64,000 bases of DNA from Bacteroidetes bacterium UBA2364 (GCA_002344075.1 DDTM01000058.1:21874-85873), one strand, 5' to 3'; positions 12,295-58,766 are shown, counted from the stretch's first letter. Program-made: numbers and translations. The notes: generated from the sequence alone by a model not told the origin.

Positions 12295-12401
12295 AAGAAC
12301 GGCACCGAAGCAAAACTGGAGGAGGTACTGTTGTTTTGCGCTCGATACCGTTCTTCAAACCACCAAACACCAAAAGGTACAACCACTAAGCCGTACCTTT
12401 T
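12295..12401. other. Cluster of nested hairpins in the 524-bp gap upstream of the T6SS-like operon
   Basis: Outer stem AAGAACGG (12295-12302) pairs with CCGTTCTT (12348-12355). It encloses inner stem GCAAAAC (12310-12316) paired with GTTTTGC (12333-12339). A 9-bp hairpin follows: AAAAGGTAC (12372-12380) paired with GTACCTTTT (12393-12401), then an A-run. All arms are perfect complements. Confidence 0.3.
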
Positions 12402-12646
12402 AAAAAAAGGTAACAAGTCCGGAAAAAATATTTTTTTCGCCTTTCCACTTGCTTTTTACGTTCTTTAGGGTTAAATACGAATCGCTTCCGCTTTCAAGAC
12501 TTCTGGAGCCTCTGGGCGTGGGTTTTCCTCAAAATGAAACAGCCCAAGGTAGTTGTTGTACAGGTTCGTATCTACCAGTAGAGGGCAGTTGGCTTTCTTA
12601 AAATTTGCGTTCGCATCCATAGATCATAAAACCTATCACCGCAGTT

Positions 12647-14527
12647 ATGGAAAACACTTCTCCGATTCAGGAATTTCGCGTCAAAATGGGGTTCTCGTCG
12701 TCTCAGGGCGAGGAACCGCGTGAAATGACTGCTGCTACGCCTTTTCGCTTGTTTCTGGCTTCTGACCTGACGCCTCACCTCATGCATGATGTCGAGTGGG
12801 ACGGTGCAACCCGTTTGGTAAAAGTGGATAAATATACTTTTGCTGAACTGATGATGTCTTGGAGGCCCACTTTATCTATAGAAGTGCCCAATTATTTAGG
12901 CACTTCACCGAAAACGCTATCGCTGTCATTGATCTTTGACCATATTCAAGGGTTTCAGCCAGATCGGTTGGTGGACCAATTGCCTTTGGTGAAGCGTTTT
13001 TTAGGTCTTAGGGATGCCTTCCTTATGGTCAAGCGCGATCAACTGTCTTATCAAGCCTTTGCTGGAACAATTCAAACGCTGGGTTTTGATCGGGAGGAGG
13101 CATTGCATTGGTCTGACCGAATCCGTCCGGTTCCCGAAGAGAATGCCTCACCCTCAACGTCGAATTCTGGTGGAGGTTTGGACAATTTGCTAAATTTGGT
13201 GGACTTGGGTGCTACGGCTACACCTGAAAAACAAGCTGGTGGAGATCCGATGGATGCCCTTATTCGTGCTTTAGCGGGTCAAAAAGCGGCTTCACCACCC
13301 AAACGCCCTATAGAAAAGGGGAAAAGTGCTTTACAAGTGGCCCTCGAAGAAGTGGAAAATCGGATTGCCCAACAATTGGATGCTGTGATCCATCATGCGG
13401 CATATCAACAATTGGAATCCTCATGGCGCGGCTTGAAATTATTGGTAGATCGTCTGGATTTTCGGAAAAATATCCGTTTAGACGTGCTTTCTGTCAATAA
13501 GGAACAGTTAAATACGGCCTTGTATCATCAAGTCTTAATGCCTGCCTATGAGATACCTCCTGAAATTCCTTTTGCAGCCTTGTTATTGGATTTTACGTTT
13601 GGGGATGTGGCCATGGATCTGGAGCGTCTTTCAGATATTGGAGAAACGGCTGCAAGCCTTCAAATTCCGGTTGTTGCTTCGGCGGCTACAAGGCTCTGGA
13701 CTGAACGTGATGCTTATGGAAATTCAAGAATTCCTACCATTCTACAGCATTTACAAAAACCGGAATTTATGGGATGGCCCTTGTTGCGTGAGCAGGCATC
13801 GTCGGGATGGATAACTTTGGCGTTGCCACATGTGCTACTCCGAAGTCCTTATCGGTCTATGCAACTGATGGGTGGTCTTCCCTATAATGAAAAAACACCT
13901 TCGGATGGAAGTGGACATTTATGGGGACGTGCGTCTTTGCCTGTTGGGGTCGCGATGGCCCAAGGTTATGTAAAGCACGCTTGGGGAACAGGGTTTGTTG
14001 GGCCTGGAAGTGCGGGTGAACAACAGGATTACCCCATTAGGAAAACCGATACCAACAGTTCGCCACTCTCTATGTGGCTTGATACGCATAAACAAGTTGA
14101 ATTCTCGGATGCTGGATTTACGGTTCTGGCTTCCCGGCCCAATTCGGATCGGGTGTATGTTGCTGGCGCGCAAGTTTTTCAGAAAGTGGCGAACTATATA
14201 GACCCTGATTCACTCGCGGAAGCACAACGCCATGCTTCGTTGTCGTGTAAAATGGTGACTGGTAAAATAACGCAAGCCATTTTATTCGCCCAAAGCATCC
14301 TTAAATCTGGTTTGTCGCCTGAGCAAATTCACGCACAACTGGTGAACCAACTCGAAAAGGTTTTAACCGAAGGCGGTCTCATGATCGCAGAAAACACAAT
14401 AAAAGTAGAAGTAGGCGATAGCCCGCGTGCCGCAGACTGTTATGGAGTCGGGATATGGATTAATTCCCCCGCCTCTCTTTTAGGAGAGGAAGTGAGTATT
14501 GCACTCGGATTTGAAGTCGCCAAATAA
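12647..14527 (+). CDS. tssBC: Contractile-sheath protein: TssB (VipA)-like and TssC (VipB)-like parts fused in one 626-aa polypeptide
   Basis: Residues about 28-160 match TssB. PFRLFLASDLT, LVKVDKYTFAELM, LSIEVPNYL and LSLSLIFDHIQGFQPDRLVDQLPLVKRFLGLRDAF parallel VipA (LPLKLMAIGDYT, ISIDKMTFDEVL, LSVPNRL, LRFKSLKDFEPENIVEQIPELKKLLELRSAL). Residues about 176-626 match TssC. QLDAVIHHAAYQQLESSWRGLKLLVDRLDFRKNIRLDVLSVNKEQL parallels VipB (QMDEILHNSQFQAMESAWRGLKLFVDRTDFRENNKVEILHVTKDEL). There is no stop or frame change between the two parts. Confidence 0.85.
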   Translation: MENTSPIQEFRVKMGFSSSQGEEPREMTAATPFRLFLASDLTPHLMHDVEWDGATRLVKVDKYTFAELMMSWRPTLSIEVPNYLGTSPKTLSLSLIFDHIQGFQPDRLVDQLPLVKRFLGLRDAFLMVKRDQLSYQAFAGTIQTLGFDREEALHWSDRIRPVPEENASPSTSNSGGGLDNLLNLVDLGATATPEKQAGGDPMDALIRALAGQKAASPPKRPIEKGKSALQVALEEVENRIAQQLDAVIHHAAYQQLESSWRGLKLLVDRLDFRKNIRLDVLSVNKEQLNTALYHQVLMPAYEIPPEIPFAALLLDFTFGDVAMDLERLSDIGETAASLQIPVVASAATRLWTERDAYGNSRIPTILQHLQKPEFMGWPLLREQASSGWITLALPHVLLRSPYRSMQLMGGLPYNEKTPSDGSGHLWGRASLPVGVAMAQGYVKHAWGTGFVGPGSAGEQQDYPIRKTDTNSSPLSMWLDTHKQVEFSDAGFTVLASRPNSDRVYVAGAQVFQKVANYIDPDSLAEAQRHASLSCKMVTGKITQAILFAQSILKSGLSPEQIHAQLVNQLEKVLTEGGLMIAENTIKVEVGDSPRAADCYGVGIWINSPASLLGEEVSIALGFEVAK

Positions 14528-14626
14528 AGATACTTCTTATTTCGTTTGATTATATCTTCTGGATTTGTCCCAGACAAGAGCCAAGCAATCATTAACCCAT
14601 ACACTAAAACGTTACCTATTCCGCGT

Positions 14627-17600
14627 ATGCAAACAAACATTCGCGTTTCAATCCTGAAAGGGCCTATATCTGGCGATAAAGATGCCTTTCAATTTAGCAA
14701 GACCTTCAATATAGGTCGGGATGCTACGTGTCAAATTCACCTCCCCAGTCCACTGGTGAGTCGTACACATGCAGACGTGTCTTTTGAAAATGGGCAATGG
14801 ATTTTGCATGACCGTAACAGTACGAATGGTATTTGGGTAAACGGTGCACGCACATCCCGTGTCGTTTTGGATATTGCCAAGGAGGTGGAATTTGGTCGTA
14901 ATGGCCCAATGTTGCGATTCGAGGTTGAGTCATTGGACAGCCCTATAGCAGAAGTGCCTGTGGTAACTCCGGAAGCGGGGTTGGCAACTTCCTTTTGGCA
15001 ATCTTTGGGTGAAATATCAGGGACTTCCCCCAGTTCTACAGAAACGCCAGTTCCTCAAACATCAGCAGAAACGGTAGCTCCGCCTTTGGAATCCGGTTTT
15101 TTTGCTGCTTTATCGGATACTCCGCCTGATGTATCTTCTATCGAGGCCACAGGAGAAACGCCCTCTCTATCGGAAAAACCCTCCGTCGAATCGGGCATTT
15201 TTACTTCAATTGATCCCTCAAAGGAATCATTTTTTGAAAGCCGCCCTGATGGGCCTACTTTTGAAGGCCTGAAAAATGTTCACCATTCCGAGGAACCACC
15301 CGCCAACGACAGTGATAAATTGGGATTGGAATCCGGTTTTTTTCGTTCATTATCGGAAGTTGTTCCTGAAACTCCAGCCCCACTCACTTTGCCTGCGACG
15401 CCTTCTTCAGCGGGCGTAACAGGATTGGAGTCGGGTTTTTTCCGTTCGTTATCGGAAATTGATGGAGCAAGCCCATCCTTGGGCAAGGAAGAGCCTCAGC
15501 AGTCAGAGGCAGTATCTGTCGCTGAATCAACAACGGCACCATCATTAGGCACTGGCTTTTTCGCTGCTTTAACGGAAGAAGCTCCACCACAGCCTACGCC
15601 CCCTATAAGTACCGATTCCATAGATTCGGCTTTGCCATCGGGCATCTTTCGCGCATTGTCCGAGTTGCCTCAGTCTGCTCCTATACCCACAGAGGAAGTA
15701 CCAGTTACGCCCGTCAAACCGGATGAAAACATGGAAATGGGTTTCTCATCTGGCATTAGTTCGGCTCTTCAGGACTTGAAAGGGATAGCTGGGGGGAAAA
15801 CACCAGATGCGCCGCAAGCGGGATTGAATACAGGGTTTTTTAAAGCGTTAGAACATGTTGCAGGCGAGGCTCCGGCATCGGCATCACCCCAGCCAATTTC
15901 GTGGGATTCGCCTGAAAAGGCGGGATGGGATACCGATACGCCGCCACCGTCCGCCGTACCAGTTGTTACACCTTGGCCATCCGCCCCCCTTACAGACAAA
16001 CCAGACTGGCCCGCCGCACAAACGGATTGGGGTACCGAAAGTACACCGCCGCACGTTGCGCCATCTTACGAATGGAGTACTCCGGGGATACCTGTGCCTC
16101 CTCCAGTACCACCCAATGAACCCCCTTTAGACGCCCTCTTCAATCAATGGGGGGCAGTAGAGGCTCCACCAGTGGGTGGAATGGAATGGGGTGCTCCACC
16201 ACCTGCTAAGGCGGGCACAGATTGCGGGACACCGCAACAATCACAAAGTGTAGGAATGGAATGGGGAAGTGAGCCGCCAGCCCATGATAAACCAGTTGCG
16301 GATGATTGGGGAGCGGCTAAGCCAACTGCTACAGATTCTGGATTTAGTTGGCCGCCTGTGCCTACTGCTGGCCATGCCGATTGGAACCCAACGTCAAACC
16401 GTGAAATGGCATTGCCATCGTCTGCGGATGATTGGTCCACACCTTCGGGGCCGCCCCCTGTAAACACTCCGCCTGCCGACTGGGGGCCTGGGTCCAAATG
16501 GGAACCATCGGCAATTGCTCCATCTTATCAGGAAGCCTCGAAAGCAACACCTCCGGCCCCAGGATCTGTTTCTGGCTATATGCGGAAGTTTGAGTCTGGT
16601 CAAACTGCGGAAATGGGTTCGCGCACCCAGATGATGATGGCGGCTTTTTCGCGAATGAGTAAACGGGACAAGCGAAAATATTACTACATCATCGGTATTG
16701 TGGCAGTTGCGTTGGTTATTGCTGCTATCTGGGCTTTATGGAAGCACAACGAAAGTAGTTCATTGGGCGAAGCATTGGATGCGTCGAATGTGGCATTGAC
16801 GACCCAAGACTCTTTAAATGTTGTTTTATTTTATCAAATTAAAGAATTACAACTCAAATTCGCCAATGATTCTACACTGAATACGAACAAGAAATTACGC
16901 GACGAAACGGCCAGAAAAATTATTGAAATGCAACAGGCCTATTCCGAGAAAATGCGTGCAAGGCCCCAGTATAGGGCTGCGGTGAATTTGGCGAATTCGG
17001 GCAATGCGAGTGGGAATGTGGATAAATTGATTTATGACATTACACGGCTTTTTGGTGAAAATGAAATGGTAATGCCTGCCGGATATGTGGATAAAGTCAA
17101 ACAGTATATCAAATATTGGCAGAGTAGTTCACGGTATATAAACGCCCTGCGAACAGCCCAAGATAACGGGTATGTGGAACCCATTGTGGCCAGTTTCATG
17201 AAGCGCGGGGTACCACCGCAGTTTTTCTACTTAGGCATGCAAGAAAGTAATTTTAACACCAAAATTGTGGGGCCTCCTACCCGTTATGGCCATGCAAAAG
17301 GAATGTGGCAATTTATTCCTTCAACGGGCGCACGATATGGGCTGAAAATTGGCCCATTGAAGGATGTTGGAGTCTATGACCCTGAAGACGAAAGGCACGA
17401 CCACGTAAAAGCGGGGGAAGCGGCGGCAGGTTATATTGCTGATATTTATAAGACGGATGCACAAGCTTCCGGATTGTGTGTCATGGCTTCGTACAACTGG
17501 GGAGAGGGAAATGTCATCAAACGCATTAGGGCTATGCCTAATAATCCCCGCGACCGCAATTTTTGGAATATGTACACGCAGACTTGGATGCCCGAAGAAA

Positions 17601-17827: not shown

Positions 17828-17863
17828 GTCGGGATTCTTATTTCTTCAGTATTCCATAACCAA

Positions 17864-19489
17864 ATGGTACAAAAACAAATGCCTCACCTGCTACAACTGG
17901 GTGAAAAAACCGATGTCGGACGGGTTCGCACCGAAAATCAGGATGCTTGCGGGCATTTTGTAGGTACTCCACAGGACGATAAACCAGCTGTTCATCTTTA
18001 TGTTGTGGCGGATGGTATGGGCGGTCATGCCGATGGCCGGATTGCGAGTAACACAGCGGTCAACACAGTGGGCGAGGCCTATTTTTCCCGCCGTATCGGA
18101 TCGGTACTCACGCGCTTAGAACACGCTTTCCAAGAAGCCAACCTCAATATCCACAAATTATTGAAAGATTTGCCTGGTGGACAAATCATGGGGACTACTT
18201 GTACGGCTTTGCTGATAGATGGGGATCGGGCTTTTGTTGCACACGTTGGAGATAGCCGTTTGTATCGGATTCGCCCAGATAAAGCAGAACAAATTTCGGA
18301 AGACCATACCATGATTTCTGCTATGGTAAAAAAAGGCATTCTGACCCCACAAGAGGCCGAACGACATCCACAAAGATCCATGTTGGAACGGGCATTGGGG
18401 CCGGAATCGCATGTAGAAGTAGATACCTTCGAGATAGACCGGCTTCATTTGAATGATGTGTATGTGCTTTGTAGTGATGGCCTCGGAGATGTACATTTGC
18501 CGGAAATATCCGAAATTGTCCGTGCAATGCCCCCACAAGAAGCGGCAGAGAAAATGGTGGCTCTTGCAAATGAGCGCGGTGGCTTGGACAACTCGACCGT
18601 GCAAGTGGTTCGAGTGGCGCCGTCCGATAAGCCTATTGAATACACGGCATCGAATGCCTCTTTTGATACCCAATTACGCCAGCAGGAGGCGCACCCAACG
18701 GTCTCAACTGGTGTCTGGAATGCATTAGAGCAACCGGAAATGTGGAGAAACGACCGTGGACATGCCGTGCTTCCTCCACCGCCAGAAGCAAAAGACCGCC
18801 CAAAGTGGCTTATTCCGATGATCTCGGGCTTGGCGATGCTGGTTGTGGTTGGGGCTGTATGGTTCAACTTAGATTTGCTGAACCGCTCTAAATCAGCTTC
18901 GGTTGCGTTACAAAAAGAGCCTTATAATGAAAATGCTTATTCAGAGGGAAGCCCTTCAAAAGAGCCAGAAACACAGGGAACTACTCTTGGTACTCAAGAT
19001 AATGTAGCTCCTTTGTTATCCGATAATCCCTTGAACAACGGAACCAAACCACCGACGCTTCCGAGTATGGTACCTCCGGTAATTGGTGCCAGTAAACCAG
19101 AAGCGGCAAGAACCACGAGCAAGCCGAAAGAAAATCCCGTTGCAATCAAACCCGAATCCTCTAAAACGGAAACAGAAAAACCGCAAGAACAAGGAAAAGA
19201 TGGTGCAAAATTGGCGAACGGCTTGGCCGAGGCATGGCAAAACCTTCAGACGGGAAACCACCAAGTGGCCGTGAGCCGGTTTATTTCGTTAGAAGCGGAA
19301 TTTGGCAAAACCCCTGAATATCGGGAAGAACGAAGCAAGGCGGCAAAAAAATTGATGTCGTTGGGAGATGGTAAACGGGCAACTCCAGCAAGTGCCTTGG
19401 ATTTGTACCGAAAGTCTCAACAACTCTTGGATAACGAAACGATCCAGAGCAGAATTACCGAAATTCAAAAAATGGAAACCAATAATTAA
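17864..19489 (+). CDS. pppA: PP2C-family Ser/Thr phosphatase (PppA-like), membrane-anchored with an extracytoplasmic C-terminal region
   Basis: PP2C motifs RTENQDA, VVADGMGGHADG, CSDGL and GGLDNSTV. The TM helix WLIPMISGLAMLVVVGAVWF lies near aa 315. About 200 aa follow it (low complexity plus a helical TPR-like end). Confidence 0.8.
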   Translation: MVQKQMPHLLQLGEKTDVGRVRTENQDACGHFVGTPQDDKPAVHLYVVADGMGGHADGRIASNTAVNTVGEAYFSRRIGSVLTRLEHAFQEANLNIHKLLKDLPGGQIMGTTCTALLIDGDRAFVAHVGDSRLYRIRPDKAEQISEDHTMISAMVKKGILTPQEAERHPQRSMLERALGPESHVEVDTFEIDRLHLNDVYVLCSDGLGDVHLPEISEIVRAMPPQEAAEKMVALANERGGLDNSTVQVVRVAPSDKPIEYTASNASFDTQLRQQEAHPTVSTGVWNALEQPEMWRNDRGHAVLPPPPEAKDRPKWLIPMISGLAMLVVVGAVWFNLDLLNRSKSASVALQKEPYNENAYSEGSPSKEPETQGTTLGTQDNVAPLLSDNPLNNGTKPPTLPSMVPPVIGASKPEAARTTSKPKENPVAIKPESSKTETEKPQEQGKDGAKLANGLAEAWQNLQTGNHQVAVSRFISLEAEFGKTPEYREERSKAAKKLMSLGDGKRATPASALDLYRKSQQLLDNETIQSRITEIQKMETNN

Positions 19490-19497
19490 TCAACATC

Positions 19498-21075
19498 ATG
19501 GTAGGTCAGTACATTGATATTTATCGGGTTACGCAGAAACTTGGCCAAGGGGGCATGGGGCAGGTTTGGAAAGCGATAGACACCCAACTCGATCGGACGG
19601 TTGCACTTAAGGTAATGAACGTGCAAGACCCCATGTTTTTGCAGCGCTTCCGGGCAGAGGCAAAAGCCTTGGCCATGTTAGACCATCCCAATATTGTACG
19701 TGTTTTCGGGATGCGTGAAACACCTATTGGAATGGTCATCATTATGGAGTTTGTGGAAGGAAAGGATTGGTCGGACCTGATCTCGCAGGGGAAGTACAAC
19801 ACGCCGGAAGATGTGGCCAATATTTCGAGTCAGTTACTGAGTGCTTTGGAGTATGCTCACTCCAAAGCCATCATACATCGGGATATCAAGCCAAGCAACA
19901 TCATGATAATGGCCGATGGGACAGTTAAAGTGACCGATTTTGGCCTCGCAAAACTTATTGACCCGCAAGCAACCATTGCCGGAAATCCATTGACCCAGGC
20001 CGGACAAGCCGTTGGCAGCCTGTACTATATGTCTCCTGAACAGGTAAAAGGCTTAGATTCGGTGGATCAACGCACCGACATCTATTCCACAGGGATTACC
20101 ATGTATGAGGCTTTGGCAGGGCGTCCACCATTCGAGGATGTAACGGCTACTTCACCCTATGTTATCCAGAAAAAGATTGTGGATGGAGATGTTCCGGCCA
20201 TTACTTCAGCAGCTCCGGGTATTCCCGCCGATCTTGCCAAGGTGATCAACCGGGCGATTCAGGTTCGCCCCGACAAACGGTACGCGAGTGCAGCAGATAT
20301 GCGCCTTGGATTGCAACAACTGGCGACAGGTCAGCAGTCTTCATACCTCCCGCCTGCATCTTCCAGTAAGAAGGTTACGGTTTCATCTAAAAGTGTAACC
20401 ACCCGATCTACAAGCCCCAACTGGATCATGATAGGTGGTATTGGAGCGGTGGTGGTTTTGGGCTTCGTAGCAATATGGTTTTTTGTCTTGAGGCCGCAGC
20501 CCAAGCCCGCTCCTCAGCCTCAGCAAGACGTCACACAAAATGATCCATTACTGAATTCAAATACGAGCCTACAGCCAAGCCAGGCAAATAATCCAAGTAC
20601 GCCCCAGGTCAACAATACACCTCCCTCGGAGAACAATACAGGCGATGTACCTGTTTTGACTACACCACCGCCAAAGAATACGACCCCTGTCCGTGACCGG
20701 ATCCAGCAAGGAGCGCAGACTATTCGTGAAAACGTTCAAAATCGAGAACCGATTATCACACGGCCAACCAAGCCCAATACGGCCAATAACAATAACCAGA
20801 CAACAACACCTGTCACAGAAAAACCAAAAGAAGAGCCTAAGCCTGAGCCTCCGGCGGCAGAAGGTTCGTTTATGGTTACAGTAGTGGGGCCGGATGGTGA
20901 ACCCCTTCCGGCAACCATCTCAACCGATCTGGGTTCCGGTTATGGTGCCCGGAAGAAGTTTACGGGAAAGCCTGGTACCTATTCAGTTTCAGTCAAAGGG
21001 CCGGATGGCACTACCAAAAATACTTCTGTTAAGGTGGTGGCGGGAAAAACAACCGCTACAACCGTCCGTTTCTAA
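19498..21075 (+). CDS. ppkA: Hanks-type Ser/Thr protein kinase (PpkA-like) with a TM helix, a Pro/Asn/Thr-rich spacer and a small C-terminal beta-sandwich-like domain
   Basis: GQGGMGQVWKA (G-loop), VALKV, HRDIKPSNIM, DFGLAK and YMSPEQ. The TM helix is WIMIGGIGAVVVLGFVAIWFFVL. The C-terminus is FMVTVVGPDGEPLPATIS...GTYSVSVKGPDGTTKNTSVKVVAGKTTATTVRF. The start is 8 nt after the pppA stop. Confidence 0.9.
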   Translation: MVGQYIDIYRVTQKLGQGGMGQVWKAIDTQLDRTVALKVMNVQDPMFLQRFRAEAKALAMLDHPNIVRVFGMRETPIGMVIIMEFVEGKDWSDLISQGKYNTPEDVANISSQLLSALEYAHSKAIIHRDIKPSNIMIMADGTVKVTDFGLAKLIDPQATIAGNPLTQAGQAVGSLYYMSPEQVKGLDSVDQRTDIYSTGITMYEALAGRPPFEDVTATSPYVIQKKIVDGDVPAITSAAPGIPADLAKVINRAIQVRPDKRYASAADMRLGLQQLATGQQSSYLPPASSSKKVTVSSKSVTTRSTSPNWIMIGGIGAVVVLGFVAIWFFVLRPQPKPAPQPQQDVTQNDPLLNSNTSLQPSQANNPSTPQVNNTPPSENNTGDVPVLTTPPPKNTTPVRDRIQQGAQTIRENVQNREPIITRPTKPNTANNNNQTTTPVTEKPKEEPKPEPPAAEGSFMVTVVGPDGEPLPATISTDLGSGYGARKKFTGKPGTYSVSVKGPDGTTKNTSVKVVAGKTTATTVRF

Positions 21076-21102
21076 CTTAAACTTTTCAACCAAAATCGTA
21101 TC

Positions 21103-22224: not shown

Positions 22225-22249
22225 ATTTTCTCCTCTAAATAATGCCTTC

Positions 22250-23557: not shown

Positions 23558-23575
23558 TCTAACCCCTGAAATACT

Positions 23576-24757
23576 ATGAAAAAAATGCTTTGGCTATGTG
23601 CTGGGGTTTTGATGGCCTGGCCGGTTATGGCACAACAAACTTCATCGCCAACCACGGAGGATCCGCAAAATGTCCGTAATAAGCGGTTTGCCGGCGTCAT
23701 GCCGACCTATCAATCGTGGACTATTGAGGCAGCGTCTGGAGAAACCCTGTCGCTCGGACAGGTCTCCAATCAAGTGCTGGTATATTACCAAGTGAACAAT
23801 CAGGTCTTGATGTCGCTGCGGAACTCCCAAGGGAGGTTTGATGCTGATTGCGAAGCGTGTTTGAATCCGACTTCCACCAGACAAACCTTCTCTGGGGTAG
23901 GCGATACCCAAGTCTCACTTTCATACCGCCTCCCCAATCCTAATTTAATTTTTAATGCAACTGTCAACTTGCCTACTGGCCGTTCGTCCCTTACTTCCGA
24001 AGAATTAGAAACGGTTGGCTTGTTTTCTAATCAGGTATTGGAGTTTAAATTGCCCGTACTTGGACAAGGTACTGCTCTTATGACCAGCGTTTCTGGGGCA
24101 TTCCCTTTGGGCGAGCAAGCGGTGCTGGGAGGGGGGCTTTCCTATATTGTGAATGGAGGATTTAAGCCGCTCACGGATCTTGAGGCCGAGTATAAGCCAG
24201 GGAATGAAGTTTCTGCTGATGTCGGGGTAAATTTCAAGATGGGATCAAACGGTTCTTTGGGAATGGACGCCATGATCACCCGTTACAACGAAGACTACTT
24301 TGTGGAAAAGGCGGTTTTTAAAGCCGGAACGAAAATTAGTACCGTTCTTCAATACCGCCATTTGAATTCAACGACGGAATGGGCGGCATTGGTGCGTTAT
24401 CGTTCACGAGAAAAAAATGCCATCGCCAGTTTTGTGGGAGAAACCCCTGCCGAAGAAGCGACAAATTCCAATCCTGCTGTAATGATGGCTCGCGCAACAT
24501 ATCGGATGAACCTGAATAAGGCGTTCGTCCCTGGTTTTTCGGTAGAAATGAGGTCTTATGCTGCGACTCCTGCCTGGTTGTCGGGCGCATTGATAGGAGG
24601 TATTGGGTTTGATCCCGAGTTTAGACTAAACGAATCAATTCTTATTCCCCTCCGAATTCGTTTTGTTTCTGGAACGGTTTCTAATCAGGGCTACTACCCC
24701 AATACCCGTTCATTGCGAAATTTGAGTGCCAGCGTGGGGTTTTATTGGTCTTTCTGA
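23576..24757 (+). CDS. Outer-membrane beta-barrel protein (MetA/transporter-like)
   Basis: Signal peptide MKKMLWLCAGVLMAWPVMAQQ. Alternating beta-strand pattern throughout, an NLPTG motif, and a C-terminal aromatic signature VGFYWSF ending in Phe. Confidence 0.55.
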   Translation: MKKMLWLCAGVLMAWPVMAQQTSSPTTEDPQNVRNKRFAGVMPTYQSWTIEAASGETLSLGQVSNQVLVYYQVNNQVLMSLRNSQGRFDADCEACLNPTSTRQTFSGVGDTQVSLSYRLPNPNLIFNATVNLPTGRSSLTSEELETVGLFSNQVLEFKLPVLGQGTALMTSVSGAFPLGEQAVLGGGLSYIVNGGFKPLTDLEAEYKPGNEVSADVGVNFKMGSNGSLGMDAMITRYNEDYFVEKAVFKAGTKISTVLQYRHLNSTTEWAALVRYRSREKNAIASFVGETPAEEATNSNPAVMMARATYRMNLNKAFVPGFSVEMRSYAATPAWLSGALIGGIGFDPEFRLNESILIPLRIRFVSGTVSNQGYYPNTRSLRNLSASVGFYWSF

Positions 24758-24872
24758 AAAAGAATGCCCTTTATAAGGTTGCGAAGATCGTACATAAGTG
24801 GTACATTCCAGAATGTTACAATAAAGATGTTGCCCTTACAAGGTCTTTAACCTTTGCCGATCTCATCCATAC

Positions 24873-26123
24873 ATGTTACTCAAAATCATTGTTAGTCACT
24901 CTGTTCGGGATGATTTTTCGTCCGACTACCTCTTTGATGAAGGACCCGTGACCATTGGTCGTCTTCCGGAAAACAAAGTGGTTTTACCAGACCGCGAGTT
25001 GATTGTGGGACGACATCATGCGGTGATCTATCTCGAAGAAGCCTTTGCATGGATTGTGGACGAGTCTAGTAAAAATTTTACGTTTTTAAATGGAGAAAAA
25101 CTCGAACACGGAAAGAAATACCAACTTCGAGACCAAGATCAACTGGAAATTGGCAAGTACCAGTTAAGGCTCTTGGACCTTACACCGAAAAATGAACCTA
25201 AAGTAGCTCCTGAAGCCGAAGGACAAACAGCCGTTCAGCCTGCTTTTAATCCTTTTTCGGACTTAGTTCGTGGATTGACCGATGTGCTTCAGCAAATCAA
25301 AGCCTCCTATGTGCAGGCTGATCCGGGAACACGAATGGTTGATTTGGAAAATGCATTCCATCGAGGATTGGGGACGTTTTCTACAGATGAAATAGCCCTT
25401 AAAATGGTGGATGCCATTCGCCCCAAGACCGAGTTTTCGTCTGTACAAGTGTCGGTGCCTTCGGCGGAGCCAGAAAAACCACGTATTGCCCCCCCTGCGG
25501 AAATGCCAGGATTTGTACCTTATTCTGGGATAGATGTACAAAATAAAACGGAGTGGGAACGTGCAATCGGAGGAATTTATAGCAGTGGACAGGATGGGTT
25601 GATTTTAAAACGCATGGCAGTGGTGGATGATGTGATGTTGCGGATTGTAGAAAAGTTGATTAAAATTCCGGCACATTTTAGGCTAGAGTTTTTAGGCCAC
25701 TCCTTCATTCCACATGCTTCCGGTTTTCCGTTCCACACAGCAACGGTTGAGCAATATAAAGCCTTTTTGTACGATATTCATGTGCCTTACGAGGTCTTGC
25801 GTGCCCGTTTGTCGGCTTTAGAACAGATTGCGGAAGCGGTGCTTTATCACGAGATTGCCTTGCTCGAAGGCTATAAGCAGGCGGTTCAATCTGGTGCTTT
25901 GCGGATATTGGATCAATTAAATCCAGAACATATAAAAAATGTTGCAGAAAAGGAAGGCCAAGATCTATACACCGTTGGTATGTTGAGCCATGCCAAGTGG
26001 CTAAAATTGGTGCAACAGGCACACTATGAACTGGTCAGAGAGGATAAAGGTGTGGTTGAAAAAACCATTTTTAGGCCCGGTTTTGTGAAAGCCTATCTGG
26101 CGAAAATAGAGTCGGTTAAGTAA
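24873..26123 (+). CDS. tagH: T6SS-associated FHA-domain protein, TagH (ImpI/VasC) type
   Basis: N-terminal FHA (VTIGRLPEN, VGRHHAVI, FTFLNGEKL). The C-terminal region has a TagH-like end (KWLKLVQQAHYEL...IFRPGFVKAYLAKIE). It sits directly upstream of tssJ-tssK-tssL-tssM, as in many T6SS-i loci. Confidence 0.7.
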   Translation: MLLKIIVSHSVRDDFSSDYLFDEGPVTIGRLPENKVVLPDRELIVGRHHAVIYLEEAFAWIVDESSKNFTFLNGEKLEHGKKYQLRDQDQLEIGKYQLRLLDLTPKNEPKVAPEAEGQTAVQPAFNPFSDLVRGLTDVLQQIKASYVQADPGTRMVDLENAFHRGLGTFSTDEIALKMVDAIRPKTEFSSVQVSVPSAEPEKPRIAPPAEMPGFVPYSGIDVQNKTEWERAIGGIYSSGQDGLILKRMAVVDDVMLRIVEKLIKIPAHFRLEFLGHSFIPHASGFPFHTATVEQYKAFLYDIHVPYEVLRARLSALEQIAEAVLYHEIALLEGYKQAVQSGALRILDQLNPEHIKNVAEKEGQDLYTVGMLSHAKWLKLVQQAHYELVREDKGVVEKTIFRPGFVKAYLAKIESVK

Positions 26124-26162
26124 TATTCGTTTTTGTTTTTGCATATTTTAAGGGAGATTCAG

Positions 26163-26666
26163 ATGAAACATTACATGAAGACCCAAACGGTTCTTTTGTT
26201 AAGCCTCTTGGTGGGGAGTGTTTGGATATCGGGTTGTTCTTTGTTTAAAAAGAAAAAGGCCCCACAAACAGTTGTCACTGCACCCGTAGAAACAAGACGA
26301 TCGGTAGAACTAACCATTAAGGCCGATGCAACCCTGAATGGTGGAAATCGTGTTAGGGTTGTGATCTATCAGCTACAGCGCAAAGAATTGTTCATGGCTT
26401 CGTCCCGTCAAGCATTTTGGTTGAAAAAAGAAACCTTGTTGCCAGATATTGCCGGAGATCCAAATCAAACACTCAGCTTTGAAATTGATCCCAATGTATC
26501 AAAGAACCATAAAGTATTTTTGTACGAAAACACCAAGTACATTGGGGTTGCGGTTGATTTCTTCCGGCCCGATGGCAACTTATGGCGTACTGTAACCGAG
26601 ATAAATCCAAATAAAAACAGTATGTTTCAGGTTTCTGTCCAAGGAAGTGCCGTTTCGATTAAATAA
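26163..26666 (+). CDS. tssJ: T6SS outer-membrane lipoprotein TssJ (VasD/SciN family)
   Basis: I moved the start from TTG 26133 to ATG 26163, which is preceded by AAGGGAG. Lipobox WISGCS. The TssJ-like pattern is VELTIKADATLNGGNRVRVVIYQLQRKELF...YIGVAVDFFRPDGNLWR. Confidence 0.7.
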   Translation: MKHYMKTQTVLLLSLLVGSVWISGCSLFKKKKAPQTVVTAPVETRRSVELTIKADATLNGGNRVRVVIYQLQRKELFMASSRQAFWLKKETLLPDIAGDPNQTLSFEIDPNVSKNHKVFLYENTKYIGVAVDFFRPDGNLWRTVTEINPNKNSMFQVSVQGSAVSIK

Positions 26667-26737
26667 GCACCTGAAACCCATATTTAGACTCCTCATGCAA
26701 GGCTGTCTCTGGATGGCCGAAGACCCACACCGATTGT

Positions 26738-28093
26738 ATGGCAAGACCCCAAAAAGTAGTCTGGTCGGAAGGCATGGCCCTCGACCCACACCACTTCCAA
26801 CAGTGGGATCGTTTTTCTCAGGCCAATGTTGTGTTTCGTCAGAGAATGTTACAACGTCACGCTTGGGGAATCCTAACATTGATGATTGATGAAGAAGCGC
26901 TCTTAAATGGCCAGTTCAGCTTAAGTCAGGCAAGTGGCATTATGCCAGATGGTCTTGTATTTGATTTACCAGAAACCGATCGTGCACCCGATGCAAGACC
27001 AATACAAGGTGCGTTTGACCCTACAAAAGACCGCTTGGCGGTGTTTTTGGCGGTTCCTGCCGAGCGAGTAGAGGGGCGAAATACGTTGTTGCCGGATGTC
27101 CCCATCAACCGAACAACGCGGTTCGTTACTACCGAAATTTTGGTTCGGGACGATAATACAGGGATTGAAGACCGTCCTATACAAGTTGCGAAAGCCAATT
27201 TTCAATTGGTTTTTGAAGGAGAGAGTGTAAATGATCTTAGTACTATCAAAATTGCCGAGGTTTTACGAACGAGGACCGGTACCTATGAGTTAAACCCCCA
27301 ATTTATACCGCCTTGCTTGTCTTTGGTCTCATCTAAGGCTTTAGAAGGTATCGCTCGTCGTACTATGGAACTCTTGGTGGCAAAGCGTCAGGCGTTAATG
27401 GAAAAACATGCGGCTTATGGTCGCGGCGAATTGATGGCAGCAGATGTGACTACGATGCTGTTTCTGGAATCCATCAATGGTTCGATTCCTGAAATCAACC
27501 ACAATTTCTCGGTCATTCAAAGCCATCCCGAAGCCTTCTTTCTTACGCTGCTGCGGCTGTCGGGTTATCTGACCACTTATTCTACTGCTTTTTCCTACAA
27601 TGATTTTCCTGCGTATGACCACAGTGACCTAACTACTTGTTTTCATACGCTCTTCAACCAGTTCCGGACATTATTGGGGGATGTGGTGTTCTCAAAAGAA
27701 TATGAGCGGATAGACCTGATTCGGAAAGGAGAATCTATTTATCTTGCAACTTTCGATGACCGCCATCTACCCGAAAATGTGGAACTGTATCTGGTGGCAA
27801 CCGGACAAGTGGCATCGGACCGGATGCGGTCTTCTTTTCCAAATGACATTCGGATAGCTTCTCCGGCCATGATCGAGCCTGTATTAAAAGGCTTTGTCCG
27901 TGCCTTGGAAGTACATTATGTTATGAGCCTCCCAAAAGGATTGCCTATACGGCCTGATGCGTTTTATTTCAAGCTGACGAAATCTGGGCCTTTTTGGGAC
28001 GACATTCGGGCAAAAAAAGCCTTGGTACTTTTTGTGCCGGCCACGTTGAAAATGTTGGATTTAGAGCTAATTGCCCTGAATCGTTCTTCATAA
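26738..28093 (+). CDS. tssK: T6SS baseplate/membrane-complex connector TssK (ImpJ/VasE)
   Basis: The N-terminus KVVWSEGMALDPHHFQQWDRF is the TssK shoulder-domain signature. Its 451-aa length and its position before tssL-tssM also fit. Confidence 0.85.
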   Translation: MARPQKVVWSEGMALDPHHFQQWDRFSQANVVFRQRMLQRHAWGILTLMIDEEALLNGQFSLSQASGIMPDGLVFDLPETDRAPDARPIQGAFDPTKDRLAVFLAVPAERVEGRNTLLPDVPINRTTRFVTTEILVRDDNTGIEDRPIQVAKANFQLVFEGESVNDLSTIKIAEVLRTRTGTYELNPQFIPPCLSLVSSKALEGIARRTMELLVAKRQALMEKHAAYGRGELMAADVTTMLFLESINGSIPEINHNFSVIQSHPEAFFLTLLRLSGYLTTYSTAFSYNDFPAYDHSDLTTCFHTLFNQFRTLLGDVVFSKEYERIDLIRKGESIYLATFDDRHLPENVELYLVATGQVASDRMRSSFPNDIRIASPAMIEPVLKGFVRALEVHYVMSLPKGLPIRPDAFYFKLTKSGPFWDDIRAKKALVLFVPATLKMLDLELIALNRSS

Positions 28094-28195
28094 ATCCGAC
28101 TCTTGTTGGACTCTATTCATTCACTTTGGGGCGGTGATGGGCAGGTACCTAAAACCGATCTACCCATTTATACGTTCATTTCAACGTCGAGAATC

Positions 28196-28861
28196 ATGAG
28201 TGCTAAACGTCCGCGTCTTTCCAAGTTCTGCACGGAGTTTTTGATGTTTGCTTTGCACATCCGTCGAACCCAGAACCCCGGTCACCCCGGGACGCTTCGT
28301 GAAAGTGTAAAACTGGCGCTTCAGAAATTAGAAAATACCTGTAAACAGGCGGGAGTTGGTTTTCAGGATTTTCAACAGGCCAAATTCGCCTTGGTGGCAT
28401 TTTTGGATGAGTCTGTGAGTATTCCAGCTTGGCCTTACAATGATGCCTGGAAACGAAATCCGCTTCAATTCGAGTTGTATGGTCGTTACGATGCTGGGGA
28501 ACAATTTTTTGAACGGATTGCATTTCTCCGACAAGATGTTCGGGCGAATCTGGAGGCACTGGAAGTGTTTTATCTATGCCTGACGCTTGGATTTCGAGGG
28601 AAGTATGAAATTGTGGGACGTGACCAATTGGCTGCGTTGCAAGATCAACTATACCGAGATTTGAAGCCCTTTGTCCAAGATACAACAGCCCAACTGGCAC
28701 CCAGTGGATACCCCCGTGCCAAAGTGATGGCGGAAGCGAGGCGGGAAATTCCGATCTGGGTCATTTTTGCCGTTGCTGGTAGCATCATGATTTTGTTTTA
28801 CATCATCATGAGCTTTCTGATTTCCAATGCTGCCGCCAATGTGATGTCGGGAGTTCAATAA
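28196..28861 (+). CDS. tssL: T6SS inner-membrane protein TssL (DotU family), without a peptidoglycan-binding extension
   Basis: DotU pattern FALVAFLDESV, PLQFELYGRYDAGEQFFERI and LEVFYLCLTLGFRGKYE. One C-terminal TM helix (IWVIFAVAGSIMILFYIIMSFLI) has only 12 aa after it. The start is ambiguous: ATG 28196 (used here) or TTG 28103 as in the track. Confidence 0.8.
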   Translation: MSAKRPRLSKFCTEFLMFALHIRRTQNPGHPGTLRESVKLALQKLENTCKQAGVGFQDFQQAKFALVAFLDESVSIPAWPYNDAWKRNPLQFELYGRYDAGEQFFERIAFLRQDVRANLEALEVFYLCLTLGFRGKYEIVGRDQLAALQDQLYRDLKPFVQDTTAQLAPSGYPRAKVMAEARREIPIWVIFAVAGSIMILFYIIMSFLISNAAANVMSGVQ

Positions 28862-28896
28862 CTGCCTTAAGCAAACCACTAAGCATTTCCAAAGCC

Positions 28897-31800
28897 ATGC
28901 TCAACGCACTTAAAAACGAATTCTTTATTGGTGGCGTCACCTACATCATCTTTGCAGCAGGGATTTTTTATCTCGGTAGTCTATTTGAGATTGACATGAC
29001 CATGCGGATTTTGATTTCGCTGGTCATATTGCTACTTGTGGCGCTGGTGATGATGTACCGAAAAATGAAAGCCAACCGAGATGCGGCCAAATTGGAAGCA
29101 GGTATGAAAGCCCAAGCGGATGCCGCACTCTTTGGTCAAGTGTCTGATAAACGATTGGAGATTGAAGAGTTACAGAAAAAATTTGTGGCTGCCATCGAAA
29201 CCCTTAAACAATCCAAATTGGGCAAAGGTGGTAAAGGAAATCAGGCACTCTATTCACTCCCGTGGTACATGCTCATCGGCCCGCCTGCCGCTGGGAAAAC
29301 CACCCTGATCCAACAATCTGGCCTTCAGTTTCCTCTGGAGTCAAGTAGGGTTCGTGGTGTTGGTGGAACAAGGGATTGTGATTGGTTCTTTTCCACCTCG
29401 GCTATATTCTTGGACACTGCCGGCCGATATACCACCGAAAAATCAGACGAGCCGGAGTGGTTAGGTTTTCTGGATCTGCTCAAAAAATATCGCAAAAAAA
29501 AGCCACTAAACGGGGTTATTGTGTCTTTGGCGGTTACAGACTTAATGGGCCGAACCGAAGAGGTTGAACAACATGCAGCGAGTATCCGCCGCCGTTTGGA
29601 TGAGTTGATTAGCCGTCTTGGAGTGCATTTTCCCGTTTATTTAGTCTTTACCAAAAGCGATTTGGTAGAAGGATGTATAGAATTTTTTAGTGATCTAAAC
29701 GCCCGTGAAGTGGAACAGATCTGGGGGCATACCCTGGATGAAAGTGAGCAAACGAGTAAAGAGCCGGGTCAGATTTTTAGATCAACCTATAATCGGATGT
29801 TGAAAACATTAGAAGATTTACGGTTAAATCGTTTAAATACCAACCTGAAACGGGAAGATCGTCGAAAAGTATATAGTTTCCCTGACGAAATGACCGGATT
29901 AAAAGACCCGATCACTACGTTTGTTAATCGCTTGTTCCAGTATAATCCTTTCAATGAAAACCCGATATTTCGGGGCTATTACTTCACAAGTGGAACCCAA
30001 GAAGGAACTCCGATTGATCGGGTGATGCAGGCACTGGCCAATCAGTATAGTTTGCCACAAACAGGCGGCGAGATGCCGATTCAGCGCGAGACCAAGAGTT
30101 ATTTTATCAAGGACATTTTTAACCATGTGATCATTCCGGACCAACGGATGGCGATGCATACAAAGGCCGAGAAGAAATTACAGAACAAACTCCAGATAGG
30201 ATCCATCGCATTGGCAGTAATCACGATGTTGTTGTTTTTCTGGGGGGTGGGTTGCGGGTATTCCAAATCTAATCAAACGTTGGCCAACTTGGACGATGCA
30301 ATACTAAAGGCAAAATCGGTGGCATGGTCCGGGCCAGAAAAAACAATTCCTAATTTACAGATATTAGACAACCTTCGGCTCCGGATTCATGAAGCCGAAG
30401 AAGAAAGTTTTTTCTGGACGATGGGGATGACACGTGGAGCAAGTGCGGCGGAACAAGCGCGTCTGTTATTCTTTCGTAAATTCAGGCCATTGGTTGAGCA
30501 GCAATTTTATCGAAATATGGAGTCTGGATTGCGTGAGTATGTAGCTTCAGGCCAAGACCCGATTGGAAAAATGGAAGAGCAGTTAGGAGCCTATATCTTA
30601 ATGGGGCCAGACGTGAATTTTGCTCAGGGAGCCGAGCCACCAACCAAAGCCGAAGGGGTTAAGCATTTGCAGGTGTTTTTGTCCTATGCAGCCGACCTTC
30701 AGTTCAATAATCCTTCGGGAAATATGCGGCTCTCCAAGGAAATTCAAACGATGGTAAAAGAACAGGTCAAACTTTTTGGCGAAGTGGTGCGGCAAAATGA
30801 ACCGCTAAGATTCCGTACAGACCAAACACTCATCCGGCAATCAAGAGAATTGCTCCGTAGAAACCTTTCTGCAAAATCAATTTATCATAGCATTAAACGA
30901 CAGATTATTAATCAAACCCCCCGGTTAGGAAGCATCGGCTTATCAGAATTATTAGGCCCCATTTCTTCTGGCTACATGTTTGGAAGTGTGCGGGTTAATG
31001 GCTTTTTCACTCGCTCTGCATGGGATACCTTAGTTGTTCGCGAATTTACAAAGCGAAGCGAAAATCCGGTGGCAGGTAACTGGATCATCGGCCCACTTTC
31101 CAAGGCCCAGTTACCGAGCAACCTGACCAATCCGGTAGAGTATTTACGTTCGTTGGTTAGGTTCTATTTTGAGGACTATGCCCGAACATGGGTTACGTTT
31201 GTACAAGGTGTTACTTACGACCGTTCTGGTGTCTCTGGCAGCAATCCACTTTCGGTAGCATTACGTTTAAACCAACTTTCCGCTGCTGGCTCATCTCCCT
31301 TCCAAGCGCTTGTGGATTCGGTATCTTCACAAAATCGTTTGTCTTTTAAGCAGGAAAAAGGAGGCAATATTGTAACGAATACTTGGGACAGCATTATGGG
31401 CAACGAGCGTACCGATATTCAGGTGGATCAATCCGGGTTGGATGTTGGGCAATCTATAAAAGCCATTCATGCACTGTCAACCTTACCGCCACCGGGTGGA
31501 AAGGGAACCAATGGCGGGCTTAAAACGCTTTTAGATGCCTATTTTGCTGTGAGCAAGGAAGTGGAACGAATGGCCAGTGGTCAACAAGCCCCAATGGCAG
31601 AACAGTCTATTAACAGTGCGAAAGATGTTGCAGAAAGATTATCTGGGCTTTTTGACGCCGGAACTGGGGCGAGAATAAAGGCATTGCTCCAAGCCCCATT
31701 AGAGGATATTTCGTCGGGGGTGGTGGTCATCCAACAGGAACAAGTAGCGCAAACTTTTTCGGCGTCCGTTGGTGGAGAATTGGCTTCTGTACAGGGAAGG

Positions 31801-32418
31801 TATCCGTTTAGTGAAAGCGCCAGTGCAGACTTATCGGCGGATGAATTTGGAGACTTGTTTAAGCCGGGTGGGAAGTTAGACCAATTCTTTGATCAAAACA
31901 AGGCGATGATAGACAATCCTAACAGTGGTGCTAAAGGGGCAGAATTAAAATCTTTCCGAGACAAGGTGCGAGAAGTGCAGAAAAGTTTCTTTGCGGGCGG
32001 CAGTTTGTCTGCACAGTTCGATATGGTTCCGGAGCGTCCAGAGCCTTCCAATGTTGTGGCCGAGGTTGACCTGAAAATGGATGCCACTCTTCACAATAAT
32101 CGGACATCGGAAGGGTTTTCATTCGAGTCTCCCAAACGCATTGCTTGGCCGGGCGACGGAAGTGAAGCCTATGTCGAAATACGAGATGTGAATGGAAATA
32201 GTGCCCGGGTCGCAGCACCAAGAGGGGCCTTTGCCATGTTCCGCTTGCTCGAAAAAGGCTCGTTAAAAGCCCGGTCTTCGGATGAATTTGTGGTGGAATG
32301 GAATGTCAAACTCGGCGGAAGAACAGTCCGATTGCGCTATACCATCCAAGCGGCTGGGCTGAAAAACCCGATTGCCGGCCTTAATTTACTTCATGACATG
32401 AAAATGCCAGAACTCTAA
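28897..32418 (+). CDS. tssM: T6SS inner-membrane protein TssM (IcmF family)
   Basis: Two N-terminal TM helices, a cytoplasmic NTPase domain with Walker A GPPAAGKTT, a third TM helix (IGSIALAVITMLLFFWGVG) and a large periplasmic domain. Its 1173 aa and its position after tssL also fit. Confidence 0.9.
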   Translation: MLNALKNEFFIGGVTYIIFAAGIFYLGSLFEIDMTMRILISLVILLLVALVMMYRKMKANRDAAKLEAGMKAQADAALFGQVSDKRLEIEELQKKFVAAIETLKQSKLGKGGKGNQALYSLPWYMLIGPPAAGKTTLIQQSGLQFPLESSRVRGVGGTRDCDWFFSTSAIFLDTAGRYTTEKSDEPEWLGFLDLLKKYRKKKPLNGVIVSLAVTDLMGRTEEVEQHAASIRRRLDELISRLGVHFPVYLVFTKSDLVEGCIEFFSDLNAREVEQIWGHTLDESEQTSKEPGQIFRSTYNRMLKTLEDLRLNRLNTNLKREDRRKVYSFPDEMTGLKDPITTFVNRLFQYNPFNENPIFRGYYFTSGTQEGTPIDRVMQALANQYSLPQTGGEMPIQRETKSYFIKDIFNHVIIPDQRMAMHTKAEKKLQNKLQIGSIALAVITMLLFFWGVGCGYSKSNQTLANLDDAILKAKSVAWSGPEKTIPNLQILDNLRLRIHEAEEESFFWTMGMTRGASAAEQARLLFFRKFRPLVEQQFYRNMESGLREYVASGQDPIGKMEEQLGAYILMGPDVNFAQGAEPPTKAEGVKHLQVFLSYAADLQFNNPSGNMRLSKEIQTMVKEQVKLFGEVVRQNEPLRFRTDQTLIRQSRELLRRNLSAKSIYHSIKRQIINQTPRLGSIGLSELLGPISSGYMFGSVRVNGFFTRSAWDTLVVREFTKRSENPVAGNWIIGPLSKAQLPSNLTNPVEYLRSLVRFYFEDYARTWVTFVQGVTYDRSGVSGSNPLSVALRLNQLSAAGSSPFQALVDSVSSQNRLSFKQEKGGNIVTNTWDSIMGNERTDIQVDQSGLDVGQSIKAIHALSTLPPPGGKGTNGGLKTLLDAYFAVSKEVERMASGQQAPMAEQSINSAKDVAERLSGLFDAGTGARIKALLQAPLEDISSGVVVIQQEQVAQTFSASVGGELASVQGRYPFSESASADLSADEFGDLFKPGGKLDQFFDQNKAMIDNPNSGAKGAELKSFRDKVREVQKSFFAGGSLSAQFDMVPERPEPSNVVAEVDLKMDATLHNNRTSEGFSFESPKRIAWPGDGSEAYVEIRDVNGNSARVAAPRGAFAMFRLLEKGSLKARSSDEFVVEWNVKLGGRTVRLRYTIQAAGLKNPIAGLNLLHDMKMPEL

Positions 32419-32438: not shown

Positions 32439-32470
32439 AAGGCGCTCACCTCGCACGGGCGCCTTTTTTT
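32439..32470 (+). terminator. Rho-independent terminator closing the T6SS-like operon
   Basis: AAGGCGC (32439-32445), a 13-nt loop, GCGCCTT and then a run of 7 T (32464-32470). It starts 21 nt after the tssM stop. Confidence 0.8.
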
Positions 32471-58728: not shown

Positions 58729-58766
58729 AACCTATCCTTTATGCTTGATAATTGATCAGTTGATTA

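Follow-up and report, generated by a model that had tools for sequence, protein, structure and literature searches.

The locus described here lies in a 64,000-nt stretch of DNA from Bacteroidetes bacterium UBA2364 (GCA_002344075.1, DDTM01000058.1:21874-85873), hereafter the window. Between positions 12647 and 32418, 12 open reading frames (ORFs), all on the plus strand, encode components of a type VI secretion system (T6SS) together with accessory proteins (Table 1). A fused TssB-TssC-like sheath paralog stands at the 5' end, followed by an FHA-SLT protein, a PP2C phosphatase, a Ser/Thr kinase, two lipoproteins and a beta-barrel protein; a TagH-like protein and TssJ, TssK, TssL and TssM complete the operon. 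With high confidence, we interpret the operon as one half, for envelope and regulatory functions, of a canonical T6SS-i whose genes are divided between two loci of a Rhodothermales bacterium. Domains were assigned by Pfam and NCBIfam scans, and topology by simple hydropathy and inspection of the N-termini. The longest ORFs are spaced 8-115 bp apart; later starts, taken by gene callers on identical contigs, enlarge three of the gaps (those before the FHA-SLT gene and tssJ, with the starts given in Table 1, and that before tssL, with starts at 28106, 28196 or 28244). A non-coding stretch of 524 bp (12123-12646) lies 5' of the operon. The terminator at its 3' end has a 7-bp GC-rich stem (GGCGCTC/GGGCGCC) and a 9-nt loop (32441-32463), followed by T7. 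It was not reported by the automated scan because its loop exceeds the limit of 8 nt allowed there.

Table 1. Features of the T6SS operon and its leader, with positions counted from the first nucleotide of the window.
Feature	Position	Strand	Evidence and remarks
Conserved non-coding element in 524-bp leader/promoter region	12310-12430	+	Core 24-mer AACCACCAAACACCAAAAGGTACA at 12358-12381
Fused TssB-TssC-like sheath paralog, 626 aa	12647-14527	+	Pfam VipA 9-145, VipB 233-510
Bitopic FHA/disordered/TM (transmembrane)/SLT lytic transglycosylase, 1093 aa	14546-17827, probable start 14627	+	FHA 55-117, SLT 887-999, TM 714-732
Membrane-anchored PP2C Ser/Thr phosphatase, proposed PppA-like role	17864-19489	+	PP2C 22-209; Stp1-type match 216 bits; TM 316-334
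Transmembrane Hanks-type Ser/Thr kinase, proposed PpkA-like role	19498-21075	+	Pkinase 9-263, 189 bits; TM 312-330
Predicted CsgG/LpoB-fold lipoprotein (ORF5)	21103-22224	+	CsgG 161-255; lipobox LLTAC; dN/dS (ratio of nonsynonymous to synonymous substitution rates) 0.04
TPR lipoprotein with CsgG-like region (ORF6)	22250-23557	+	TPR matches; lipobox YVGC
Outer-membrane beta-barrel protein (ORF7)	23576-24757	+	Signal peptide; C-terminus ...GFYWSF; weak Phenol_MetA_deg match
Fha/TagH-like FHA scaffold	24873-26123	+	FHA 26-94, 52.5 bits
TssJ outer-membrane lipoprotein	26133-26666, likely start 26163	+	T6SS-SciN; TIGR03352 54.6 vs. 31.6; lipobox ISGC
TssK, baseplate/membrane-complex connector	26738-28093	+	T6SS_VasE full length, 360 bits; PDB 5y0e TssK 5.9e-43
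TssL (DotU), tail-anchored	28103-28861	+	DotU 175 bits; TM 218-236; without peptidoglycan-binding extension
TssM (IcmF-like)	28897-32418	+	IcmF-related_N, IcmF-related, IcmF_C; TIGR03348 639 vs. 388; three TM helices
Intrinsic terminator, operon end	32441-32470	+	Read by eye from sequence

A sequence-only reading of the window, made by a model beforehand, had proposed much of this layout. The 12 co-directional ORFs, the 524-bp upstream gap and the closing terminator agree with the ORF map and our reading of the sequence; the gap sizes of 8-115 bp, dependent on start choice before tssL, agree with the alternative tssL starts in gene-caller records. Its gene calls (TssJ/K/L/M, FHA, kinase, PP2C, SLT, lipoproteins and beta-barrel) proved accurate in the Pfam and NCBIfam scans. 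It had placed about one third of the coding capacity in four "cluster-specific" proteins (the FHA-SLT protein, the two lipoproteins and the beta-barrel), which amount to 2294 of the 6455 aa (36%). The reading had also found no gene for tube, spike, wedge, cap or ClpV in the 64 kb, and this was confirmed by tblastn of the whole window in all frames (E<=0.01). With sister-species TagF, TssA-C, Hcp, TssE-G, ClpV, VgrG and PAAR as queries, the sole match was the fused ORF; the fused ORF alone was likewise matched by the core set of Salinibacter ruber (without TagF, TssA and PAAR).

The tail genes lie elsewhere in the genome, on a second contig. Over 21,182 bp, the window matches with 100.000% identity a contig (DDRQ01000032.1) of a Rhodothermales metagenome-assembled genome (MAG) recovered from bioreactor sludge, GCA_002343655.1; a search with ORF7 returned a 100% identical protein encoded on contigs that include this one. 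In the same MAG, contig DDRQ01000040.1 carries tagF-tssA-tssB-tssC-hcp-tssE-tssF-tssG-clpV-vgrG-PAAR (locus 2; the operon in the window is locus 1). All 13 core genes are accounted for without overlap: tssJ, tssK, tssL and tssM in the window, and the other nine (tssA, tssB, tssC, hcp, tssE, tssF, tssG, clpV and vgrG) in locus 2. Locus 2 begins at tagF, right after non-T6SS genes, and no tssJKLM genes were detected within 10 kb of it. A conspecific MAG, GCA_002333175.1, carries both loci, and so does the sister-species MAG GCA_016788705.1 (locus 1 on JAEUSQ010000018.1, locus 2 on JAEUSQ010000012.1); two independent Logan assemblies each hold both sister-species loci. The arrangement is thus replicated in three assemblies and two species, with exactly complementary gene sets. 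The two loci are on separate contigs, at least ~43 kb apart as judged from positions within the contigs. Identity between the species is 86.0% (locus 1) and 87.8% (locus 2) at the nucleotide level, with a GC (guanine plus cytosine) fraction of 0.46-0.48 for both loci; near-equal divergence would be expected of two loci shared by one pair of genomes. The system falls within T6SS-i, since all 13 core genes occur in one genome and TssJLM is present; the single-locus clustering usual, though not obligatory, for this type is not seen.

Locus 2 was reached through a TssG profile search of 50%-identity representatives, followed by a low-GC amino-acid composition filter and by the step from cluster members to their contigs. 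The TssG cluster member MBL7977079.1 and the 89%-identical relative of the fused sheath protein, MBL7977479.1, are both from GCA_016788705.1. The latter is the closest relative among the matches listed, and its locus has the same flanks and the same gene order over the seven reachable genes. A TssG alignment scan of genome contigs yielded 80 loci, which served as the source of reference architectures; none was from the window's clade, and the Rhodothermales ones were all of high GC. Searching with S. ruber TssG did not place the window-clade TssG among the best 120 matches. Alignment of the TssM C-terminus against metagenomes gave one close relative (L090); the lineage whose fused protein is 44% identical to that of the window was not found in this search. 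Locus 2 continues 3' of vgrG (L173:16020-20958; L163:16023-20961) with a PAAR protein bearing a CarboxypepD_reg-like part and then five small genes (166, 396, 260 [HEAT], 155 [DcrB] and 295 aa), which are candidate effector, immunity or adaptor genes.

Membrane-complex and tail genes are linked in related bacteria. In other Rhodothermales, tagH-tssJ-K-L-M-tagF-tssA-tssB-tssC-hcp-tssE-F-G-clpV-vgrG are contiguous and run in one direction. The break in the window lineage falls exactly between tssM and tagF, because tagF follows tssM in these contiguous relatives. S. ruber has tssM-L-K-J-fha on one strand and, on the other strand, tssB-tssC-hcp-tssE-F-G-clpV-vgrG, two DUF2169 genes, a fused paralog, and genes for FHA-SLT, PP2C, kinase and two CsgG/TPR proteins. 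The architecture of locus 1 is shared to varying extents by its closer relatives. In a third lineage (L090) gene order is retained from the kinase gene to tssM, with ileS-dksA-lspA next, and the amino-acid identity of TssK, TssL and TssM is 90-94%. Genes 1-7 of the operon are kept in L004, and the first six in the lineage (L005/L006) with the 44%-identical fused protein and different upstream genes. A separate variation was observed in the Rhodothermales MAG PL23a_bin.4 (L037; 2472-4232, 10001-12844), where vgrG directly follows tssG with no clpV within reach, and the tssM ORF has only 587 aa.

Substitution patterns were examined gene by gene. Relative to the sister species, dN/dS was 0.04-0.13 for the seven accessory genes from the fused paralog to the beta-barrel, which is the same range as for xylA, xylB and DDAH. 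The genes from tagH to tssM were compared with L090 only, a comparison in which dS was saturated; TssK was 94% identical in amino acids vs. 84% for IleS. Judged from these patterns, the genes of the operon are functional and under purifying selection.

The protein encoded by the first gene appears to combine both subunits of a T6SS sheath. Its family profile aligns to VipB 5-468 of 473 and to TssB 16-157 of 164. An AlphaFold2 (AF2) model (predicted local distance difference test score, pLDDT, 80) matched VipB and TssB in Foldseek with target-normalised TM-scores of 0.77 and 0.67, respectively; matches to sheaths of phages and extracellular contractile injection systems (eCIS) were far weaker. 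Together, the profile and the model indicate a T6SS sheath fold that spans both subunits in full. The description of this protein as a fused TssB+TssC sheath holds for the fusion and the fold; it does not hold as an equivalog of either subunit, as the protein scores under both NCBIfam equivalog cut-offs (TIGR03355 for TssC, 170.8 vs. 271.5; TIGR03358 for TssB, 50.9 vs. 97.25). Identity to canonical TssC is 25-26% (26% for the sister-species TssC). Separate canonical tssB (167 aa) and tssC (510 aa, VipB and VipB_2) genes are present in GCA_002343655.1, and a canonical pair is also found in the sister species and in S. ruber. Against PDB, the canonical TssC of the sister species matched Vibrio cholerae VipB (438 bits), Myxococcus xanthus TssC (434 bits) and Pseudomonas aeruginosa TssC1 (379 bits). 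Because the S. ruber member sits beside canonical tssB and tssC in one cluster, the fused protein of the window is regarded as an additional sheath paralog belonging to the accessory module. By comparison of sequences it is classed as a divergent extra paralog and not as the working sheath of the system. The suggestion that the sheath was kept with the membrane complex was therefore misleading: canonical tssB and tssC belong to locus 2, and the fused protein of the window is the extra paralog.

The TssB and TssC parts of the fused protein are joined by a disordered linker of ~60 residues, which holds the motif LDNLLNLVDL; here the family profile aligns to the VipB N-terminus. The N-terminus of VipB is the region bound by ClpV. 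The fused paralog is not an independent sheath. Our best guess, which is speculation, is that it serves either as a sheath-type subunit with a special place, for instance in a ring that initiates or terminates the sheath, or as a regulator that interacts with ClpV or TssA. It could be a non-exchangeable sheath ring at the baseplate or the distal end, or it could be a phospho-regulated nucleator or decoy that ties envelope sensing to sheath polymerisation. In the literature searched, neither a naturally fused TssBC paralog nor this accessory module was found described. Such proteins are also missing from a 2026 review of T6SS accessory factors, in which no entry reads "sheath-like", "TssC-like" or "beta-barrel". 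It is tentatively proposed, with doubt somewhat outweighing confidence, that the fused paralog is an undescribed T6SS component and that it makes up, with its invariably linked module, an accessory unit conserved among the T6SSs of Rhodothermota. The family of the fused protein is small. Fused VipA-VipB paralogs were also observed adjoining canonical tssB and tssC in T6SS loci of Acidobacteriota, Bryobacterales and Stellaceae (L067:509-2035, L089:334-2058, L070:7047-8846, L063:18827-20083(-) and L084:16465-17775(-)). Several of these have only 418-508 aa and no VipB_2 C-terminal domain, and some are near kinase and PP2C genes.

These data bear on several readings of the operon. The sequence-only reading had offered two, one half of a split T6SS or a reduced, divergent contractile-system variant. 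The former is borne out by the tail locus on another contig of GCA_002343655.1, also present in the conspecific and sister-species MAGs, and the latter is contradicted by the presence of a full complementary tail locus in the same assembly. An autonomous reduced machine, in which fused TssBC would assemble into a polymer on the TssJKLM-TssK platform and no tube, spike, wedge or ClpV would take part, could draw on the lack of tail genes in the 64 kb, on the complete sheath fold of the fused protein and on the strong purifying selection on the operon. It is largely refuted by the tail locus, which has no tssJKLM of its own within 10 kb; moreover, the fused paralog of S. ruber is inside one complete T6SS cluster with canonical tssB and tssC, and we know of no role for TssK without TssFG. 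We regard such a machine as very improbable. Local absence of tail genes would also be expected of a decaying remnant left by their deletion, an explanation with next to no probability: all 12 ORFs are intact, the dN/dS values of the seven accessory genes refute it, and gene order has been retained in L090, L004 and the 44%-identity lineage. T6SS-iii, T6SS-iv and eCIS were considered and rejected on the presence of TssJLM, TssK and a T6SS-type two-part sheath fold and on the far weaker phage and eCIS sheath matches.

It is also improbable, if slightly less so than an autonomous machine, that another tssJKLM set serves the tail locus and that the operon is an extra docking or regulatory station specialised by the fused paralog. 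TssM proteins of Rhodothermota T6SS loci fall into two types, with ~36% and ~23% identity to the window TssM, and our survey covered 10 kb on either side of chosen genes; both points leave room for such a second platform. However, the core-gene sets of the two loci are perfectly complementary, and locus 2 starts at tagF after non-T6SS genes, at the place where tssM sits in contiguous relatives. The assignment of the operon to one half of a split T6SS-i has its own weak points. Co-residence of the two contigs rests on MAG binning, a further tssJKLM set could be present elsewhere in the genome, and T6SS activity is predicted here from gene content. The split-system model also does not account for the upkeep of a second, fused sheath-like protein under purifying selection. 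According to the sequence-only reading, a second locus with the canonical tail set, together with a gene order common in a described T6SS-i subtype, would reduce the operon to part of an ordinary split T6SS. The second locus was found; the match to a described T6SS-i subtype is one of gene-order resemblance only. Taken as one half of a split T6SS-i, the operon belongs to an ordinary system with a modestly novel accessory set.

The membrane complex encoded in the window is of the TssJ-TssL-TssM type and not the TssNQOPR type of T6SS-iii, as indicated by the TssJ, TssM and DotU scores (Table 1). Only weak matches to T6SS_FHA_C (19.3 vs. 23.7) and TIGR03354 (79.5 vs. 120.25) were obtained for the TagH-like protein; its gene is directly 5' of tssJ, and the same position is seen in L092, L009 and L091. 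A fused B12-binding/MeaB GTPase/mutase protein, an IcmF-type acyl-CoA mutase, is encoded elsewhere in the window (44555-47923). It shares only the name with the T6SS protein IcmF/TssM and is unrelated.

Candidate parts of a PpkA/PppA pathway in the operon are a kinase with one TM helix, a membrane-anchored PP2C and a pair of FHA proteins; the periplasmic vWA domain typical of the kinase in that pathway was not detected. In the FHA-SLT protein, the PP2C and the kinase, a single TM helix parts the cytoplasmic catalytic or FHA portion from the periplasmic portion. A possible beta-sandwich was noted by eye in the periplasmic C-terminus of the kinase, and the S. ruber kinase ortholog bears a PEGA domain. 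Orthologs of the FHA-SLT protein follow the fused paralog in L001, L007 and L008. Between the SLT domain and the cytoplasmic FHA domain lie a TM helix and a disordered region, an arrangement that suggests phosphorylation-dependent recruitment. The disordered cytoplasmic region (residues 121-713, ~600 aa; window 14906-16684) is made of P/S/A-rich repeats with ~7 motifs resembling ESGFFxxLSE and many DWG/EWG motifs; a role as multivalent scaffold is possible. In S. ruber, most of this region is missing from the ortholog (563 aa). No description of the FHA-disordered-TM-SLT architecture was found in the literature.

The two lipoproteins, ORF5 and ORF6, are paralogs (29-30% identity over ~215 aa). 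The CsgG match of ORF5 is partial (profile positions 8-104 of 210; 32 bits vs. a cut-off of 20.8), and S. ruber orthologs of ORF6 match CsgG; neither protein gave a match to PDB sequences. ORF7 was modelled with AF2 as an all-beta barrel (pLDDT 80), with Foldseek matches to TodX/FadL, OprD, a COG4313 channel, FapF and PelB, and has an ortholog in L008.

The leader of the operon contains a conserved non-coding element. Its 24-mer core is identical in L004 and in L005/L006, and TGGAGGAGG and other short blocks of the element are also conserved in the 44%-identity lineage. The element is probably an operator, promoter or leader motif. As a check for co-regulation, the 24-mer was looked for upstream of locus 2 and was absent there. 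A structured RNA was considered and rejected, with no Rfam match and an RNAalifold energy of -8.3 kcal/mol that included an unfavourable covariation term.

Housekeeping genes border the operon on both sides, with xylB-xylA-DDAH upstream and ileS-dksA-lspA downstream, in agreement with the flanks given in the sequence-only reading. The flanks also include a CarboxypepD_reg-domain protein beside FecR and an extracytoplasmic function (ECF) sigma factor, a type IX secretion system (T9SS) sorting domain and a type-2 IleRS. To judge from this gene content, they are the flanks of a Rhodothermota/Bacteroidota-type genome. GC falls to 0.39 at 58000-60450 of the window, where no confident gene was identified in 59541-60449; two opposite-strand overlapping ORFs of ~130 aa are present there (59827-60225).

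One of the closest known systems is the H1-T6SS of P. aeruginosa, in which fha1-tssJ-K-L-M-tagF-pppA-ppkA-tagTSRQ is divergent from tssA-B-C-hcp-tagJ-tssE-F-G-clpV-vgrG. Both systems have a unit of Fha, membrane complex, TssK and kinase/phosphatase genes (with TagF in P. aeruginosa) and a unit of TssA, sheath, tube, wedge, ClpV and VgrG genes. A transmembrane Ser/Thr kinase, a PP2C and an FHA protein for post-translational control are likewise common to both, the control being predicted from the gene content in our case. In contrast to P. aeruginosa, the two units here are on separate contigs and not back to back, and tagF is in the tail unit. CsgG-like/TPR lipoproteins and a beta-barrel are present instead of TagQRST, the kinase is without vWA, and the FHA-SLT protein and the fused TssBC paralog are additional.

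The S. ruber cluster (CP020719.1, JACIFC010000013.1; L001, L009) shares with the window the order of the accessory module (fused TssBC, FHA-SLT, PP2C, kinase and two CsgG/TPR genes) and a tssJKLM/fha set of the same type, with TssK and TssL 39% and 41% identical, respectively. Unlike in the window, the membrane, tail and accessory units of S. ruber are in one cluster with the membrane unit inverted, a large FlgD_ig protein takes the place of the beta-barrel, and the fused paralogs are 30% identical. T6SSs with several loci have been described: T6SS-iii of Chryseobacterium, for example, is reported to be split into up to five loci (PMC10781749). As in such multi-locus systems, core genes are scattered with physically interacting partners kept together (tssJ-K-L-M; tssB-C; tssE-F-G); unlike the system described here, T6SS-iii uses TssNQOPR and not TssJLM. 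MltE of enteroaggregative Escherichia coli (EAEC) and TagX of Acinetobacter are described as cell-wall hydrolases that remodel peptidoglycan for T6SS assembly (PMC13584744). By analogy, the SLT protein may be a periplasmic hydrolase dedicated or recruited to membrane-complex insertion; unlike MltE and TagX, it links this hydrolase domain to an FHA domain in the cytoplasm by way of a TM helix and ~600 disordered residues.

A working model can be drawn from T6SS-i biology. The SLT domain would open the peptidoglycan for insertion of the TssJLM complex, which would span the envelope, and TssK would dock the TssEFG-VgrG baseplate encoded at locus 2. TssA would prime polymerisation of Hcp and TssBC, contraction would fire the spike, and ClpV would recycle the sheath. 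As in the H1-T6SS of P. aeruginosa, assembly would be gated by a threonine-phosphorylation switch made up of kinase, phosphatase and both FHA proteins. An envelope signal probably reaches this switch through the periplasmic domains, the lipoproteins and the beta-barrel, the last two being candidate sensors or anchors.

No new kind of machine is shown by these data. T6SS-i with TssJLM is well established in Rhodothermota, the sister lineage of Bacteroidota; to our knowledge, Bacteroidota use T6SS-iii only. The lesson is that an incomplete set of T6SS genes in a window or contig usually points to a split system. Genomes of this kind would be overlooked or wrongly scored by cluster-based detectors that apply quorum rules. 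The remaining novelty is in the fused sheath paralog, its conserved partners and the 24-nt leader element. Purifying selection maintains a second sheath-like protein, a fused one, beside a phospho-signalling and envelope module, and such proteins recur in several phyla beside normal sheath genes. If it is true that the fused protein acts in sheath structure or in the gating of assembly, it would represent a new class of accessory factor for a well-studied machine.

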